A stretch of DNA of 64,000 nt from Escherichia coli O157:H7 (GTDB lineage Bacteria; Pseudomonadota; Gammaproteobacteria; Enterobacterales; Enterobacteriaceae). The stretch lies in the NCBI RefSeq assembly GCF_013167455.1, contig NZ_CP038328.1. One strand, 5' to 3'. Both the position numbers and the translations under genes were made by a program. Shown one piece after another: positions 5,193 through 23,944 of this stretch. Each line of letters opens with the position of its first letter. Within the stretch, counting starts at the first letter, position 1. Under the pieces are notes generated by a model, which searched no databases, was not told the DNA's origin, and saw nothing but the letters and a program-made list of their open reading frames with translations.

Positions 5193-7675
5193 AACTCAGT
5201 CGTCGTAGCTTTATGAAAGCTAACGCCGTTGCGGCCGCTGCGGCGGCTGCCGGTCTCAGCGTGCCGGGCGTTGCCCGCGCCGTTGTTGGTCAGCAGGAAG
5301 CCATTAAATGGGATAAAGCGCCGTGCCGTTTCTGCGGTACTGGTTGCGGCGTTCTGGTCGGAACGCAGCAGGGGCGTGTGGTGGCCTGTCAGGGCGACCC
5401 GGACGCACCGGTTAACCGTGGCCTGAACTGCATTAAGGGCTATTTCCTGCCCAAGATCATGTACGGTAAAGACCGTTTGACGCAGCCGCTGCTGCGTATG
5501 AAAAACGGTAAATATGACAAAGAAGGCGAATTTACCCCAATCACCTGGGATCAGGCCTTCGATGTGATGGAAGAGAAATTCAAAACCGCCCTGAAAGAAA
5601 AAGGGCCGGAATCGATCGGTATGTTCGGTTCTGGTCAGTGGACTATCTGGGAAGGTTATGCCGCGTCCAAGCTGTTTAAAGCGGGCTTCCGTTCGAACAA
5701 CATCGACCCGAATGCGCGTCACTGTATGGCGTCGGCAGTAGTTGGCTTTATGCGAACCTTTGGTATGGATGAGCCGATGGGCTGCTATGACGACATCGAG
5801 CAGGCTGACGCGTTTGTGCTGTGGGGCGCAAACATGGCGGAGATGCACCCGATCCTCTGGTCACGCATCACTAACCGTCGTCTCTCTAACCAGGACGTCA
5901 CCGTGGCGGTGCTTTCAACCTACCAGCATCGTAGCTTCGAGCTGGCGGATAACGGCATCATCTTTACGCCGCAATCTGACCTGGTGATCCTGAACTACAT
6001 CGCCAACTATATCATTCAAAACAATGCGATAAATCAGGACTTCTTCAGCAAGCACGTTAACCTGCGCAAAGGGGCGACGGACATCGGCTACGGTTTACGT
6101 CCGACCCATCCGCTGGAAAAAGCAGCGAAGAATCCGGGTTCTGACGCCTCCGAACCGATGAGCTTTGAAGATTACAAAGCCTTCGTTGCTGAGTATACGC
6201 TGGAAAAAACCGCTGAAATGACTGGCGTACCAAAAGATCAGCTGGAACAACTGGCGCAGCTGTATGCCGATCCGAACAAGAAAGTCATCTCCTACTGGAC
6301 GATGGGCTTCAACCAGCATACTCGTGGCGTGTGGGCCAACAACCTGGTCTACAACCTGCACCTGCTGACCGGCAAAATTTCCCAGCCGGGTTGCGGTCCG
6401 TTCTCCCTGACCGGGCAGCCTTCCGCGTGTGGTACTGCGCGTGAAGTGGGCACCTTTGCTCACCGTCTGCCTGCGGACATGGTGGTAACTAACGAGAAAC
6501 ATCGTGATATCTGCGAGAAGAAGTGGAATATCCCGAGCGGCACCATTCCGGCGAAAATCGGTCTGCATGCGGTAGCACAAGACCGTGCGCTGAAAGACGG
6601 CAAGCTGAATGTTTACTGGACCATGTGTACCAACAACATGCAGGCCGGGCCGAACATTAATGAAGAGCGTATGCCGGGCTGGCGCGATCCGCGCAACTTC
6701 ATCATCGTCTCCGATCCGTATCCGACAGTCAGTGCGCTGGCCGCCGACTTGATCCTGCCGACCGCAATGTGGGTAGAAAAAGAGGGGGCTTACGGTAACG
6801 CCGAACGCCGTACTCAGTTCTGGCGTCAGCAGGTACAGGCGCCAGGCGAAGCGAAATCGGACCTCTGGCAGTTAGTCCAGTTCTCCCGCCGCTTCAAAAC
6901 TGAAGAAGTATGGCCGGAAGAGCTGCTGGCGAAGAAACCGGAACTGCGTGGCAAAACGCTGTACGAAGTTCTGTATGCCACCCCCGAAGTGAGCAAATTC
7001 CCGGTATCCGAACTGGCGGAAGATCAGCTGAACGATGAATCCCGCGAGCTGGGCTTCTATCTGCAAAAAGGGCTGTTCGAAGAGTACGCATGGTTTGGTC
7101 GCGGTCACGGTCACGATCTCGCGCCGTTCGATGACTACCACAAAGCGCGCGGTCTGCGCTGGCCGGTGGTGAACGGTAAAGAAACGCAGTGGCGTTACAG
7201 CGAAGGTAACGACCCGTACGTGAAAGCGGGCGAAGGCTATAAGTTCTACGGTAAACCGGATGGTAAAGCGGTGATCTTCGCGCTGCCGTTCGAACCGGCG
7301 GCGGAAGCACCGGATGAAGAGTACGACCTGTGGCTCTCTACCGGACGCGTCCTGGAGCACTGGCACACCGGCAGTATGACTCGCCGTGTGCCGGAACTGC
7401 ACCGTGCCTTCCCGGAAGCGGTCCTGTTTATTCACCCGCTGGATGCGAAAGCGCGCGATCTGCGCCGTGGCGACAAAGTGAAAGTGGTTTCTCGCCGTGG
7501 CGAAGTGATCTCGATTGTCGAAACGCGCGGTCGTAACCGTCCGCCGCAGGGCCTGGTGTACATGCCGTTCTTCGACGCCGCACAGCTGGTTAACAAACTA
7601 ACGCTGGACGCGACCGATCCGCTCTCGAAAGAGACGGACTTCAAGAAGTGCGCGGTCAAACTGGAGAAGGTGTAA
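5189..7675 (+). CDS. napA: Periplasmic nitrate reductase catalytic subunit NapA
   Basis: 828-aa ORF; Tat signal SRRSFMK; molybdopterin oxidoreductase with N-terminal Cys cluster. Confidence 0.95.
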
Positions 7676-17585: not shown

Positions 17586-20177
17586 ATGCATCAATCTGGT
17601 TCTGTTTCTCTTTGTCGTTCCGCAATATCTGTTCTGGTAGCTACAGCGTTATATTCACCCATAGCATTGGCATCAACAGTTGAGTATGGTGAGACAGTTG
17701 ATGGTGTTGTCCTGGAAAAAGATATCCAGCTGGTTTATGGGACCGCCAATAATACGAAAATCAATCCTGGCGGAGAACAGCATATTAAAGAATTTGGTAT
17801 AAGTAGTAATACTGAAATTAACGGCGGGTATCAGTACATTGAAATGAATGGCACCGCAGAATACTCAGTATTAAATGATGGTTATCAAATTGTTCAAATG
17901 GGTGGCGCGGCAAACCAGACTACGCTCAATAATGGTGTGCTACAGGTTTATGGCGCAGCGAATGATCCCACGATTAAAGGCGGGCGCTTAATCGTTGAAA
18001 AAGATGGGATTACCGTCCTTGCCGCTATCGAAAAGGGAGGATTACTGGAGGTTAAAGAGGGGGGATTAGCGATTGCGGTAGATCAGAAAGCAGGCGGTGC
18101 TATTAAAGCAAGCACGCGGGTCATGGAGGTATTCGGAACAAACCGTCTCGGTCAGTTCGAAATCAAGAATGGTATTGCTAACAATATGCTGTTGGAAAAC
18201 GGCGGAAGTTTGCGAGTTGAAGAAAATGACTTCGCTTATAATACTACTGTAGATAGTGGCGGCTTACTGGAGGTTATGGATGGCGGGACTGCAACTGGCG
18301 TTGATAAAAAAGCAGGCGGAAAATTAATTGTCTCAACGAATGCGCTGGAAGTGAGTGGTACAAACAGTAAAGGCCAATTTAGTATAAAAGATGGTGTGTC
18401 AAAAAATTATGAACTGGATGATGGTTCCGGGCTTATTGTTATGGAGGACACGCAGGCCATTGACACTATCCTCGATGAGCATGCCACTATGCAATCGCTG
18501 GGAAAGGATACTGGTACGAGAGTGCAGGCAAATGCGGTATATGATCTCGGTCGATCAGATCAGAATGGAAGTATAACGTATTCCTCTAAAGCCATCTCTG
18601 AAAATATGGTTATCAACAATGGCCGCGCTAACGTCTGGGCTGGCACAATGGTTAACGTGTCAGTCAGAGGAAATGATGGCATTCTTGAGGTTATGAAGCC
18701 GCAAATAAATTATGCACCCGCAATGTTGGTGGGTAAGGTAGTGGTTTCTGAGGGCGCTTCTTTAAGAACGCATGGTGCCGTGGATACCAGCAAAGCGGAT
18801 GTTTCGCTCGAAAATAGCGCATGGACCATCATTGCCGATATCACTACGACGAACCAAAACACCCGCCTTAACTTAGCCAACCTTGCGATGTCTGGCGCAA
18901 ATGTGATTATGATGGATGAGTCAGTGACTCGTTCATCTGTGACGGCAAGTGCGGAAAATTTCACTACGTTGACCACCAATACCCTGTCGGGAAACGGCAA
19001 TTTTTATATGCGTACCGATATGGCGAATCATCAGAGCGATCAGCTCAACGTCACCGGTCAGGCAACAGGTGATTTCAAAATATTCGTGACGGACACCGGT
19101 GCCAGCCCGGCAGCAGGAGATAGCCTTACACTGGTAACAACGGGCGGCGGTGATGCTGCATTTACGTTGGGCAATGCCGGAGGCGTTGTTGATATCGGTA
19201 CGTATGAATATACCTTGCTGGATAATGGTAACCATAGCTGGAGTCTGGCAGAGAATCGCGCGCAAATTACCCCTTCAACCACTGATGTGCTGAATATGGC
19301 GGCCGCACAACCGCTGGTATTTGATGCAGAACTGGACACCGTGCGTGAGCGTCTTGGTAGCGTAAAAGGCGTTAGTTACGATACGGCGATGTGGAGTTCG
19401 GCAATTAACACCCGCAACAACGTGACCACTGATGCGGGAGCTGGTTTTGAGCAAACATTGACGGGCCTGACGCTCGGTATCGATAGCCGTTTCTCCCGTG
19501 AAGAAAGCAGCACAATTCGCGGCTTGTTCTTTGGTTACTCTCATTCTGATATTGGTTTTGATCGCGGCGGCAAAGGCAATGTCGATAGCTATACCCTGGG
19601 GGCTTATGCCGGTTGGGAGCATCAGAACGGTGCCTATGTTGATGGAGTGGTGAAAGTTGACCGTTTTGCCAACACCATCCATGGCAAGATGAGTAATGGG
19701 GCAACAGCGTTTGGCGATTACAATAGTAACGGCGCGGGTGCTCATGTCGAGAGCGGGTTCCGTTGGGTTGACGGATTGTGGAGTGTTAGACCCTATCTGG
19801 CCTTTACCGGCTTTACCACAGATGGTCAGGACTACACGTTATCAAACGGCATGCGCGCGGATGTGGGAAATACCCGGATATTACGCGCTGAAGCGGGAAC
19901 GGCGGTAAGCTATCACATGGACCTGCAAAACGGTACGACGCTGGAACCCTGGCTGAAAGCCGCCGTGCGTCAGGAATACGCCGATTCTAACCAGGTGAAA
20001 GTTAATGACGATGGCAAATTTAATAATGATGTGGCTGGAACCCGTGGCGTTTATCAGGCTGGGATAAGGTCATCGTTTACCCCGACGTTAAGCGGTCATT
20101 TGTCAGTCAGCTATGGCAATGGCGCAGGGGTAGAATCGCCGTGGAATACCCAGGCGGGTGTGGTCTGGACGTTCTGA
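17586..20177 (+). CDS. yejO: Autotransporter adhesin-like protein YejO (intact)
   Basis: 863-aa ORF; signal peptide, repetitive beta-helix-like passenger, C-terminal beta-barrel ending in WTF. Confidence 0.8.
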   Translation: MHQSGSVSLCRSAISVLVATALYSPIALASTVEYGETVDGVVLEKDIQLVYGTANNTKINPGGEQHIKEFGISSNTEINGGYQYIEMNGTAEYSVLNDGYQIVQMGGAANQTTLNNGVLQVYGAANDPTIKGGRLIVEKDGITVLAAIEKGGLLEVKEGGLAIAVDQKAGGAIKASTRVMEVFGTNRLGQFEIKNGIANNMLLENGGSLRVEENDFAYNTTVDSGGLLEVMDGGTATGVDKKAGGKLIVSTNALEVSGTNSKGQFSIKDGVSKNYELDDGSGLIVMEDTQAIDTILDEHATMQSLGKDTGTRVQANAVYDLGRSDQNGSITYSSKAISENMVINNGRANVWAGTMVNVSVRGNDGILEVMKPQINYAPAMLVGKVVVSEGASLRTHGAVDTSKADVSLENSAWTIIADITTTNQNTRLNLANLAMSGANVIMMDESVTRSSVTASAENFTTLTTNTLSGNGNFYMRTDMANHQSDQLNVTGQATGDFKIFVTDTGASPAAGDSLTLVTTGGGDAAFTLGNAGGVVDIGTYEYTLLDNGNHSWSLAENRAQITPSTTDVLNMAAAQPLVFDAELDTVRERLGSVKGVSYDTAMWSSAINTRNNVTTDAGAGFEQTLTGLTLGIDSRFSREESSTIRGLFFGYSHSDIGFDRGGKGNVDSYTLGAYAGWEHQNGAYVDGVVKVDRFANTIHGKMSNGATAFGDYNSNGAGAHVESGFRWVDGLWSVRPYLAFTGFTTDGQDYTLSNGMRADVGNTRILRAEAGTAVSYHMDLQNGTTLEPWLKAAVRQEYADSNQVKVNDDGKFNNDVAGTRGVYQAGIRSSFTPTLSGHLSVSYGNGAGVESPWNTQAGVVWTF

Positions 20178-21180: not shown

Positions 21181-22149
21181 TTATCCCGATACGGGGATCA
21201 CCATATCGGGATTGATGCCGGAAAAATCAGCTTTCGCCAGAACGGTGACGGCCTTATCGAGTTTTTGCCATCCGCAATAGGTGATTGCCCTGAACGCTGT
21301 AGCGTCATTCTGGAAAAGGCTAACCGCCCCTGATTCGGTTTTTATTACCGCCTCATCAGTTGGGGTTATAACCGTGGCTTCAACGTTAATAATCAGCTTT
21401 TGAGCGTCTATCAGCATCATGCGATCCGCCTGTTCGCTCACAATTACCGGTATTCTCAAAAGCTCTATCTGCCAGAACTCAGCATCAGTAAGCTGTAATG
21501 CGTTTTCTACGGGCAAGATTAGCGACGACGTGGAAAGCGTGTTACCGTTCGCTATGTGCTTTTTGAAAAGCTCTATGAAGTTTTCGGCCTCATCAGCACC
21601 ATTAAGCACGCCCTCAGGGGATACGCCAGCCACCTCCTGATCACTGGAAAGAAATTTTTTATCTATTTCTTTCACCGATTCCGATGTGATCAAGTCTCTG
21701 ATCGCTGAATTGGTGCCAGGGGTGCTAAATTTGATTAGCTCGTTATTCAGCATCACAATAGCGCCAAGTTTGCACAGTTTTAGCGCGCTTTCGTTTACTT
21801 CTCCCTCTTTGACAGGGATTTCTTCTGCTTCTTTAAGCCATTTACTACCCTTGCCTGATATTGACTGCAATTTTGCGCCAAACGGAAGATTAAGCGCGCT
21901 GCTGATTAGCTTGCCTGGTACAGACTGCGAAAAAATATATTCTCCAAGCTCTCTTACTATCGGCTCTGCCACCAGCGACGGCATATTATCCGTAGTCATT
22001 CCGGCAATAATGGATTTTTCAAGAAATTTCGATACTGCCGGATCATTTCTTTTCGTCATCTCTATAGCGTCTGCATGGCTGAATTTACACGATGTAAGCA
22101 CGCTGGCGGCGCGAACTGCCGAAACGCCTTTCATGTTTTTAGAAATCAT
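21181..22149 (-). CDS. Putative HK97-fold major capsid protein-like
   Basis: ~322 aa; segments GKGSKWLKEAEEIPVKEGEVNESALKLCKLGAIVMLNNELIKFS and EGVLNGADEAENF resemble conserved Phage_capsid (HK97 family) motifs from memory; start taken at second ATG (9 nt after GGAGG). Confidence 0.5.
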   Translation of the reverse strand: MISKNMKGVSAVRAASVLTSCKFSHADAIEMTKRNDPAVSKFLEKSIIAGMTTDNMPSLVAEPIVRELGEYIFSQSVPGKLISSALNLPFGAKLQSISGKGSKWLKEAEEIPVKEGEVNESALKLCKLGAIVMLNNELIKFSTPGTNSAIRDLITSESVKEIDKKFLSSDQEVAGVSPEGVLNGADEAENFIELFKKHIANGNTLSTSSLILPVENALQLTDAEFWQIELLRIPVIVSEQADRMMLIDAQKLIINVEATVITPTDEAVIKTESGAVSLFQNDATAFRAITYCGWQKLDKAVTVLAKADFSGINPDMVIPVSG

Positions 22150-22300
22150 CTTCTTCATCCTCCTGGAAGCACGGGTTTAGTGTTTCGTGAAAATATGGCA
22201 TCAGAACAGCGGCGGCCTGTAACCGTATTTCGGTCGGCTGCTGCTTGTCGTTCATGATTTCCGTGAGTACATCAATAGGGTCTGTGATGTATTCGCTCAT
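22139..22300 (-). CDS. Small acidic protein (53 aa) between terS-like and capsid-like genes; below ORF-track threshold
   Basis: ATG with GAGGT RBS 11 nt after terS stop; MSEYITDPIDVLTEIMNDKQQ...EDEEDDF; overlaps capsid-like gene start. Confidence 0.4.
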   Translation of the reverse strand: MSEYITDPIDVLTEIMNDKQQPTEIRLQAAAVLMPYFHETLNPCFQEDEEDDF

Positions 22301-22311
22301 AGTTCGCTACC

Positions 22312-22800
22312 TCAGTGTTTTAAGTCTGTTGGTGGCTTAGGGATGGGGAACCGATTTGAGTAGACACTAGCGGCATTGAGTTTTTTAACCTCTTTTTTCC
22401 CAATGCTGCCGATCTTGCGGTGGGTGAACTGGGCCAGCTTAAACGCGGCATCTAAAGCCAGTTTTGGATCTGTGTCCATGTTGTCAATCAGTATCCTGCC
22501 CATTGCTTTGATGGGGTCGGGTAGGCCGTTATCCATCATCTCAATGGTGTTAATTGATGCCCGTTCCGGTGTAACTTTTTCGGTAACTTTCTTTGTAACT
22601 TTTTTCGGTTTTGTAACCTGAAAAGTTACATCAGAAGTTACAGCCTTAAGATACTTTTTCACCTCAGGATCGTTGGATAGCTGCCAGCCTTTAACCCTTG
22701 CGGTCTTTTCGCTGTATCCAGCATGTATAGCGGCTTCCGTGGGATTTGCGCCCCTTGATAACGCATCAGCAAACCGCTTTTTTTTGGTCGTTAATGCCAT
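22312..22800 (-). CDS. Terminase small subunit-like protein (TerS)
   Basis: Starts MALTTKKKRFADALSRGANPTEAAIHAGYSEKTARVKGWQL, matching the recalled TerS HTH motif (Terminase_2-type); GAGG RBS upstream; the 46-aa N-terminal extension in the track ORF is rejected. Confidence 0.6.
   Translation of the reverse strand: MALTTKKKRFADALSRGANPTEAAIHAGYSEKTARVKGWQLSNDPEVKKYLKAVTSDVTFQVTKPKKVTKKVTEKVTPERASINTIEMMDNGLPDPIKAMGRILIDNMDTDPKLALDAAFKLAQFTHRKIGSIGKKEVKKLNAASVYSNRFPIPKPPTDLKH
22565..22643. repeat. Array of AAAGTTAC / GTAACTTT repeats inside terS-like gene (candidate pac/terminase recognition site)
   Basis: At least six copies in both orientations, encoding the KKVTKKVTEKVT peptide; similar copies upstream at 22821-22850. 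Confidence 0.4.
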
Positions 22801-22927
22801 GCAAAAACCTCGTTTTGAGGGGGTGTAACTTTTCGTGTAACTTTTTTGAAAAGCAAAATTTTCTACGAATGAGACGGGGGGCGGTGTCCAGGGCGATCGA
22901 CTTTCCGGCCGGAACACTCCCCCCCTG

Positions 22928-23089
22928 TCATTGCTCACCGAGTAACGAGATCAGGCCTTCAACTTCATCACTCAGCTTGTTTATTCGTGTCTCAAGCTCT
23001 GCGATCTTTTCCATCAATGGCGCTATGGTGTCTCTTGTTTCCTCGCCAATGGCTTTAATGATGCTTGCCTCGCGTTCTGTGATAGCCAT
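22928..23089 (-). CDS. Small coiled-coil protein (53 aa); below ORF-track threshold
   Basis: ATG with GAGG RBS 8 nt upstream, 3 nt after stop of preceding ORF; MAITEREASIIKAIGEE... Confidence 0.4.
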   Translation of the reverse strand: MAITEREASIIKAIGEETRDTIAPLMEKIAELETRINKLSDEVEGLISLLGEQ

Positions 23090-23092
23090 TGT

Positions 23093-23287
23093 TTACGCCT
23101 CACTTGTTGCAATGCCCAGGCGTTCGCGTAACAGTACGCGCGCAAGATGCCCTATTGTTGGTGTTGCCGCCCTGCCGTAGATACCTGATTCATTCATCCG
23201 GCGCACAATATCGAACTGCAACTTTTTAAGCTCGTTAAGGATTTCATGATCAATCATCACGGTAGCGCTTTGCTTTATCTCTTCCAC
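23093..23287 (-). CDS. Small hypothetical protein (64 aa, GTG start), first gene of packaging operon; possibly DNA-binding
   Basis: ORF with GGAG RBS; located just downstream of a terminator. Confidence 0.4.
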   Translation of the reverse strand: MEEIKQSATVMIDHEILNELKKLQFDIVRRMNESGIYGRAATPTIGHLARVLLRERLGIATSEA

Positions 23288-23374
23288 TTTGTTTTCTCCA
23301 GATACTTATCATTGCATAACCAGTATTTTCGATAGATTATCATTAATTAACCATCTTTGAAGATATATGAGATC

Positions 23375-23699: not shown

Positions 23700-23935
23700 A
23701 CCCTTCACCTGTTCACCTTTTGATATTTTATCTTTTAATTCATAATGTTAAGGGGTGAACAGTTTCACAAAAACTATTCACCAACTATTCACCACTGTTC
23801 ACCCTTGAAGCTCAATAAACAATCAAAAAGGTGAACAGTGAATAGTTTGGTGAACAGTTCATAAATAACTGTTCACCCTATAATATACTGATATAAAAGA
23901 TATTTATGACAGGGTGAACAGTGGTGAACAGTTAT
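23700..23935. repeat. Iteron array (GGTGAACAG / CTGTTCACC, with CTATTCACC variants) and AT-rich tracts: putative island replication origin
   Basis: At least 8 perfect 9-mers in both orientations plus variants, immediately 3' of the primase-helicase gene. Confidence 0.75.
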
Positions 23936-23944
23936 TCCATAAGT

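Follow-up and report, generated by a model that had tools for sequence, protein, structure and literature searches.

Phage satellites that encode their own small terminase (TerS), private cosB elements, and packaging recognition sites that overlap terS are all known already. The phage-inducible chromosomal island (PICI) EcCICFT073 of Escherichia coli combines a helper-type cosN with a different cosB, and packaging is thereby redirected to the island; the structure of RppC has been solved (PMC6739421). TerS-encoding PICIs, including the pathogenicity islands of Staphylococcus aureus (SaPIs) with TerS(S), use the satellite small terminase to recognise a satellite-specific site together with the large terminase (TerL) of the helper (PMC6739421; PMC6092414). 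Recognition DNA overlaps terS at the pac of P22 gene 3 and at the pacL/pacR of SPP1/SF6 (PMC9611059). Here we analysed a 64,000-nt stretch of the E. coli O157:H7 genome (contig NZ_CP038328.1; hereafter the window) in which a satellite-like island carries a terS gene with an array of AGTTACA-type repeats inside it and just upstream. We propose that these repeats are probably a cosB-like TerS recognition element, part of a cos-type packaging site of the satellite.

Short repeats cluster inside terS and in its leader

Eight GTWAC cores (consensus AAAAGTTACA) were found at the locus, six within terS, which lies on the minus strand, and two in its non-coding leader. Their plus-strand starts are 22571, 22583, 22595, 22613, 22625, 22637, 22825 and 22837, giving successive spacings of 12, 12, 18, 12, 12, 188 and 12 bp, with 12 bp prevailing. 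Tandem Repeats Finder returned a period of 12 for the coding group as well as for the leader group. Such clustering far exceeds chance. The window holds 117 GTWAC in all; when these were placed at random, six within 75 bp were never seen in 20,000 trials, and eight within 275 bp had P=1.5e-4. Exact GTAACTTT occurs seven times in the window against 1.8 expected, a count reached in 0/100 shuffles, and six of the seven copies fall in 22571-22844. The fuller consensus of the repeat is (A)AAAGTTACA, and AGTTACA itself is present seven times in the window, six of these in the array region.

Read on the gene strand, the internal array runs GTA-ACT, GTA-ACT, GTT-ACA, GTT-ACA, GTT-ACC, GTT-ACA and encodes the peptide VTSDVTFQVTKPKKVTKKVTEKVT. 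The first two units are inverted (TGTAACT) and the last four direct (AGTTACA, GGTTACA or AGTTACC). Since GTA-ACT and GTT-ACN both specify Val-Thr, either orientation of the motif leaves the peptide unchanged. An earlier reading made from the sequence only had described at least six AAAGTTAC/GTAACTTT units within the gene. This count holds for the GTWAC core; exact octamers make up only four of the six coding units. The same reading was right that the array produces a peptide repeat and that further copies lie 5' of terS, these being the two non-coding leader elements, situated 31 and 43 nt downstream of the 'CTCA' of the cos block described below.

The repeat cores were invariant in 11 near-identical copies of the island, whose divergence of only 0.3-2.6% is too low for testing constraint. 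Two close variants of the island TerS, P0003 and P0004 (90-91% identity), have a Val-Thr repeat shorter by exactly 8 and 4 residues, that is, by two 12-nt units and one. Because both are shortened by whole units, the copy number of the internal array varies in nature.

The repeats adjoin a cos block common to Stx phages

The closest phage TerS proteins (46% identity) belong to Shiga toxin (Stx) phages of the Stx1a, Stx2c and Stx2a types, such as 2851, BP-4795, 1717 and Lys8385Vzw, in which the packaging module is ordered HNH-terS-terL-protease/capsid-portal. Phage Lys8385Vzw was classified by PhageTerm as a cos phage with 3' cohesive ends CGCCCCCCCT (PMC7946995), and its GenBank record ends in ...GGACACCGCCCCCCCT and starts with CTCACGCAGAG. 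Just upstream of the island repeats we found CGCCCCCCGT, one base off this cohesive end; GGACACCGCCCCCCGTCTCA is single-copy in the window. A local alignment of the island with phage 2851 over 67 nt (22859-22925) includes CGATCGCyCyGGACACCGCCCCCCGTCTCA, with the 10-mer identical in both. From this comparison, the packaging site is thus most likely a cos site that, as in HK97-like modules, depends on HNH.

The sequence-only reading had assumed pac-type packaging. This premise is unsupported because the island aligns with 2851 over the very block that holds the Lys8385Vzw cohesive end. A headful mechanism was also rejected in view of the HNH-terS-terL module found in the homologous phages, one of which, Lys8385Vzw, is a PhageTerm-defined 3'-cos phage.

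The cos block overlaps an imperfect dyad centred near 22900, with arms at 22868-22881/22919-22932 and 22876-22895/22906-22925. As single-stranded DNA this dyad folds no better than shuffled sequences (z=-0.8). A G-run in its left arm (22919-22926) differs in length and sequence among near-identical copies, being G7 here with an extra G or T elsewhere, and is G12 in 2851. A known RNA family was rejected as an explanation, the comparison giving only sub-threshold miRNA matches expected by chance.

Repeat codons are conserved as DNA

We compared eight TerS lineages sharing 51-65% protein identity: the window island; the E. coli island variants L016 and L102; L018, a complete phage module of Hafnia alvei; L100, a phage-like contig in which terS adjoins terL; and L020, L022 and L101, which are Salmonella and metagenome loci. 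In a codon alignment of these lineages, between-group synonymous third-position identity was 157/205 (77%) in repeat columns against 676/1432 (47%) elsewhere, figures to be read with the common descent of the lineages in mind. Codons of the repeats are fixed in all eight, as GTA-ACT at the first two units and as nAA-AAA-GTT-ACA at the later ones. The codon preceding GTA ends in T in 8/8 lineages at the second unit (GAT, GGT, AGT, TCT, CTT) and in 5/8 at the first, and the Lys, Gln and Glu codons ahead of the direct units retain -AA. The fixed codons, the T and AA kept despite differing residues, and the third-position identities together indicate that DNA rather than peptide is conserved, even where the amino acid changes. 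In the leader, GAAAAAGTTACACC is kept in 8/8 lineages, including L100 and L101, whose sequence ends before or barely at the cos block.

The comparison of synonymous positions had been suggested by the sequence-only reading. Far from varying freely at the DNA level, the repeats proved conserved at these positions, as would a signal that resides in the DNA and is linked to terS and the packaging site.

The motif changes between lineages while the cut region is kept

In phage 2851 the interval from cosN to terS is filled by five GTTAAC and contains neither GTTAC nor GTAAC. The island has eight GTWAC and no GTTAAC. Only two of these fall between the cut and the ATG, an interval of 73 nt in the island and 229 nt in 2851, and six lie within the gene. 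The first element stands at a steady +30 to +34 from the cut (Table 1), while anything from about 25 to 190 nt separates it from the ATG. In the order cosN, repeated elements, terS, the repeats occupy by their layout a cosB-like position, at which the nick region is kept and the identity of the repeat swapped.

Other relatives vary the same theme. L104, an HNH-terS-terL phage with a TerS of 35% identity, carries two upstream copies of TGTTAAGT and, in the linker, four of GTTAAS; the KVKSEVKKVKSEVKKVN linker of L103, another integrase-capsid-terS island, contains four GTTAA. AGTTACA elements were found upstream of and inside terS also in the complete Hafnia phage module L018 and in the contig L100. 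The motif is not exclusive to islands and differs only from the E. coli phages sampled. The difference from the GTTAAC of the related resident Stx phages is what an island-specific packaging site, as proposed, would require; the sharing of the motif with L018 and L100 speaks against exclusivity. Among the phage records compared, no E. coli phage has a full-length TerS of the GTTAC type above 47% identity. Scans of viral contigs matched only near-identical islands and 2851-type phages, and the scan of genome contigs gave one locus.

Two of the relatives have features of their own. In L016, a second type of E. coli island (5348-6474; TerS 62% identical), a 162-aa open reading frame (ORF) with a weak HNH match lies upstream of terS, and the cut-to-ATG interval of 227 nt holds six GTTAC/GTAAC elements, including the inverted pair AAAAGTTACACGATGTAACTTTT, besides the internal ones. 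The metagenome contig L022 (1-5760) contains one large and two small ORFs, terS, and ORFs of 50 and 321 aa; directly after these comes a 451-aa protein that has the nuclease domain of TerL. The contig may be a satellite embedded in the late region of a helper, comparable to helper-embedded PICIs.

Table 1. Features at the island packaging locus (window coordinates) and distance of the first repeat element from the 'CTCA' of the cos block in different lineages
Feature	Position	Strand	Remarks
terS, 162-aa small terminase	22312..22800	-	Pfam Terminase_2; PHROG 641; RefSeq coding sequence 'terminase small subunit'
Internal array, six GTWAC cores, 12/12/18/12/12-bp spacing	22570..22642	-	Encodes Val-Thr-repeat linker; proposed distal TerS-binding elements
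Two non-coding AGTTACA, 12 bp apart, in terS leader	22824..22842	-	Proposed proximal cosB-like elements
10-nt CGCCCCCCGT, proposed cosN cut region	22874..22883	-	Identical to the 10-mer at the corresponding site of phage 2851
cos core block common to Stx phage 2851	22859..22932	.	Alignment and inverted repeats
53-aa ORF directly after terS	22139..22300	-	Resembles TerS oligomerisation core; acidic tail EDEEDDF
325-aa HK97-fold major-capsid homologue	21181..22158	-	Pfam Phage_capsid E=1.3e-6; PHROG 617, PHROG 10
First element, seven GTTAC lineages with cos DNA	+30 to +34		Motif GTTAC
First element, phage 2851	+33		Motif GTTAAC
First element, L105	about +33		Motif GTTAAC
First element, L104	about +34		Motif GTTAAG

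The island TerS has a G1P-like DNA-binding domain

The island protein consists of an N-terminal G1P-like helix-turn-helix (HTH) domain (residues 1-56), a Val-Thr-repeat linker (about 53-79) predicted to be disordered and a C-terminal helical core. Pfam PF03592 (Terminase_2) matches residues 3-57 with E=1.4e-10 (42.4 bits against a cut-off of 26.1), PHROG 641 covers the full length (E=1.5e-43), and RefSeq annotates the same coding sequence in a 99%-identical copy. Homology to Rpp was rejected, as a sequence search of the PDB gave no Rpp chain at E<=1 and the protein is a full-length member of the TerS family. RefSeq and all homologues start at the ATG at 22800; a 208-aa ORF with a GTG start (22312-22938), which would run through the cos block, was discarded. 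In homologues, namely phage 2851, the Hafnia phage L018, L100, L104 and L105, terS is directly upstream of terL.

An AlphaFold2 model shows a confident four-helix N-terminal domain (1-56, pLDDT about 90), repeat-encoded residues 58-79 with pLDDT below 50, and C-terminal helices within 96-126 (96-106, 112-126) and at 135-147; the repeats are thus predicted to encode a disordered linker. The top Foldseek match was the DNA-binding domain of SF6 TerS/G1P (4zc3; TMt 0.86, root-mean-square deviation (rmsd) 1.5 A), and over the SF6 DNA-binding domains 4zc3 and 2cmp the model superposes with TMt 0.82-0.86 and rmsd 1.5-2.4 A. When the whole chain was compared, with regard to a putative ring-forming oligomerisation core, the small terminases of SF6, NV1 and PaP3 matched weakly (E 0.01-0.6). 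In the SF6/SPP1 family, neighbouring HTHs of the ring stand about one DNA turn apart, and direct repeats of pac surround the terS start (PMC4737164).

Identity between the island and 2851 proteins is 59% in the HTH domain, 3% in the linker and 69% in the C-terminal core. At position 39, within the HTH, every GTTAC-type TerS has W, C or Y and every GTTAA-type TerS has S, which makes this residue a candidate specificity residue in a comparison confounded by phylogeny.

Near the start of the gene, codons 6-8 (22777-22786, minus strand) read ACC-AAA-AAA-AAG in most lineages. The stretch includes, in frame, a slippery heptamer like that of dnaX, A-AAA-AAG, and is probably just part of a Lys-rich N-terminus. 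The 53-aa ORF that follows terS matches PHROG 641 at positions 89-125 (E=1.1e-6); BLASTP gave no match between it and TerS, so this profile is the sole link. ORFs of 49-51 aa also follow terS in L021, L022, L100 and L101, in L100 between terS and terL. The 53-aa product could be a mimic or partner of the TerS core.

A proposed packaging specificity of the island's own

Annotation of the genes and domains of the island revealed no TerL, HNH, portal, tail or lysis genes. Lacking TerL, HNH, portal and tails, the island must borrow these from a helper. On the best reading of the locus, the repeats would confer on the island a packaging specificity unlike that of co-resident phages while the helper cosN is kept. 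The island would have retained the cosN CGCCCCCCGT of Stx-phage-like helpers, which package through HNH, TerS and TerL, and would have replaced their GTTAAC repeats with AGTTACA repeats that match its own TerS. With its N-terminal HTH, this putatively ring-forming SF6/SPP1 G1P-like protein would bind the regularly spaced elements, of which two, beginning about 32 nt from the cut, are in the leader and six are in its own gene. Bound TerS would recruit helper TerL and HNH to cut cosN, and island concatemers would then be packaged in preference to phage DNA. We infer that the TerS of the helper, tuned to GTTAAC, would ignore the island, just as the island TerS would ignore the phage. Because the interval from cut to ATG is so short, most elements would have been written into codons of the disordered TerS linker, where Val-Thr tolerates both orientations.

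Several points weigh against assigning the array to cosB. The internal array lies about 230-300 nt from the cut, and the most distal of the five GTTAAC of 2851 is at about +150. The number of elements differs by lineage (1-6 upstream, 3-6 internal), with no fixed count required, and the natural variants P0003 and P0004 do without two internal units and one. The C-terminal tail of the island TerS (..LKH) is like that of Hafnia-type phages and unlike that of 2851 (..LVVNN..). Shared ancestry inflates the synonymous conservation, so that 77% and 47% overstate the number of independent observations. Finally, sequence-specific reading of a 7-mer by a G1P-like fold is not established.

A more far-reaching proposal, which we put forward only tentatively, concerns the origin of this arrangement. 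The terS lineage may have moved most of its cos recognition elements into codons of the disordered linker, about 70 nt then serving both as a peptide tether and as a DNA docking array. A one-base change of the core, from GTTAAC to GTTAC, coupled to the change at HTH residue 39, may have created an orthogonal packaging specificity that was exploited by satellites keeping the helper cosN. If this were true, terS and cos would form a compact, portable cassette with a specificity readable in its sequence, and E. coli would possess a natural pair of orthogonal cos systems.

Other explanations of the repeats

The repeats could instead be an operator with no direct role in packaging. By binding the leader pair and the internal array, perhaps with a loop between them, TerS or another DNA-binding protein of the island or a phage would then hold back terS transcription or translation or set its timing. 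We regard this as unlikely, although the leader pair, 24-42 nt upstream of the ATG, adjoins the Shine-Dalgarno sequence and a leader site combined with an intragenic one is a common geometry for repressor loops. The first element is in register with the cos cut and not with the ATG, and the equivalents in 2851 all fill the cosN-terS interval. Neither is there a sigma-70-like promoter in 22250-23350; a reading of the repeats as promoter or intrinsic terminator was dropped for this reason and because terminator-like matches were on the wrong strand and at chance level. Regulation of this sort is in any case compatible with a cosB-like role rather than exclusive of it.

A little less probable again is binding by a factor other than TerS that aids cos cleavage or bends the DNA, for example an architectural protein of the host, the HNH protein of the helper or TerL. 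The motifs lie within A-rich tracts able to bend DNA, and cosB of lambda requires integration host factor (IHF) besides its R elements. AGTTACA is, however, unlike the IHF consensus. The type of motif also tracks TerS lineage and HTH residue 39, across eight and four lineages that are phylogenetically nested, and it changes while cosN is conserved, the island and 2851 sharing the 10-nt end. The HNH and TerL proteins, with 64-65% identity between phages of the GTTAC type and those of the GTTAAC type, are ordinary orthologues.

We think it improbable that the internal array is a by-product of a slippage-prone, low-complexity VTKK linker with no function at the DNA level, whether the leader copies alone matter or none do. 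The segment is predicted to be disordered, and the close variants P0003 and P0004 differ by exact 4-aa units, as slippage would have it. This process accounts for tandem identity within one genome, but not for position-specific codon identity across lineages that are 51-65% identical. It likewise leaves unexplained the conserved T and AA in neighbouring codons with differing amino acids, the conserved order of inverted then direct units, the recurrence of the 7-mer in non-coding DNA upstream, and the presence in relatives with another motif of that motif in their linkers. Very remote, finally, is the idea that these short direct and inverted repeats, regularly spaced in a satellite that replicates, are iterons of its replication origin, since a separate dense GGTGAACAGT field lies directly downstream of the primase gene, where PICI origins lie (PMC6092414), and AGTTACA elements are also found at cos-terS of a complete Hafnia phage.

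The island is a PICI-type satellite

The island is inserted at tRNA-Pro between yejM and yejO and carries genes for an integrase, an AlpA-like HTH regulator, Icd-like proteins, a D5-type primase, TerS, the 53-aa ORF and a capsid homologue. In an annotated near-identical copy it spans about 9 kb, from the integrase beside tRNA-Pro to the capsid homologue. These genes identify it as a PICI-type phage satellite with the Gram-negative layout described previously (PMC6092414). PICIs of that type have an integrase, AlpA and a primase/replicase with an adjacent origin, a size of about 10-15 kb, no lysis or tail genes and a specific attachment site, a pattern to which the island conforms. It is present in 219/5426 complete E. 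coli genomes, many of them O157:H7 and O111 strains; the 2851-type module is present in 1252/5426 (23%).

About 10 copies of GGTGAACAGT/ACTGTTCACC, densely set in both orientations and with long imperfect inverted repeats, lie at 23709-23937, in the non-coding gap that follows the primase gene immediately downstream. Judged by its position, this iteron field is probably the replication origin of the island.

The capsid homologue has no protease or scaffold fusion, and related phages have a 645-aa protease-capsid fusion; it matches the capsid part of the 2851 protein weakly. It putatively belongs to the packaging and morphogenesis genes of the island. Similar capsid homologues have been described in many Gram-negative PICIs, and the protein also recalls the idea of SaPIbov5 Ccm. 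The adjoining autotransporter gene yejO (17586-20177, plus strand) is an intact 863-aa ORF here and a pseudogene with an internal stop in a 99%-identical reference genome.

Significance and comparison with known systems

The proposed role of the repeats suggests how a satellite common in Shiga-toxin-producing E. coli could be packaged selectively, with Stx-type prophages as putative helpers, and such packaging bears on DNA mobility in these pathogens. The comparison also provides, from the sequence, a likely cos architecture for the Pankowvirus/Stx-phage packaging module, namely cosN CGCCCCCCGT followed by GTTAAC repeats. It offers a testable case of coding DNA that doubles as a binding site for its own protein product. 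How specificity arises in HTH-type small terminases is still debated, a question on which the GTTAC/GTTAAC pair found in nature would make a helpful test case.

In the literature searched we found no account of this cos architecture for the Stx-phage HNH module, of a GTTAAC-to-GTTAC swap in a PICI keeping the helper cosN, or of recognition elements embedded in TerS linker codons and constraining them. Publications about O157 prophages or lambdoid Chi phages had nothing on this cos type, and the literature searched on pac sites did not describe linker-codon repeats conserved at synonymous sites.

The general plan would be that of lambda cos, in which a cut site with defined cohesive ends is followed by short repeated TerS-binding elements of mixed orientation and then by the terS start. 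Recognition is by the N-terminal HTH of TerS, gpNu1 acting on R3/R2/R1 in lambda; we propose the same for the island. The two would differ in their ends, lambda having 12-nt 5' overhangs and the island a predicted 10-nt 3' overhang made with an HNH accessory nuclease, as in HK97-like modules. They differ also in TerS family (Nu1 in lambda; SF6/SPP1 G1P, or Terminase_2, in the island) and in the elements, which in the island are 7-mers spaced at 12 bp and mostly within the terS coding sequence.

SPP1 and SF6 share the fold family of the island TerS and have direct repeats flanking the terS start (PMC4737164). In contrast to the probable cos type of the island, P22, SPP1 and SF6 are headful systems, and the pac of P22 is a single asymmetric 22-bp site (PMC9611059). 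Capsid-forming PICIs (cf-PICIs) such as EcCIEDL933 (bioRxiv 10.1101/2022.09.08.507074) are likewise E. coli PICIs, and their genes for packaging and capsid follow the HK97-like HNH-terS-terL type. They carry the full set of capsid, protease, portal, connectors, HNH, TerS and TerL, whereas the present island has only TerS, the 53-aa ORF and the capsid homologue.

Functional parallels are offered by the two kinds of satellite introduced at the outset. In EcCICFT073 the specificity factor Rpp heterodimerises with a lambda-type TerS of the helper; the present island encodes a complete TerS homologue, and would use a helper module of the HNH/3'-cos type. Packaging by the SaPIs is headful (pac), whereas this island has a probable cos site with the cohesive-end sequence of its putative helpers. 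Set beside the Rpp/cosB system of EcCICFT073 and the TerS of SaPIs, the present island differs in that it combines a complete satellite TerS with a probable cos site.

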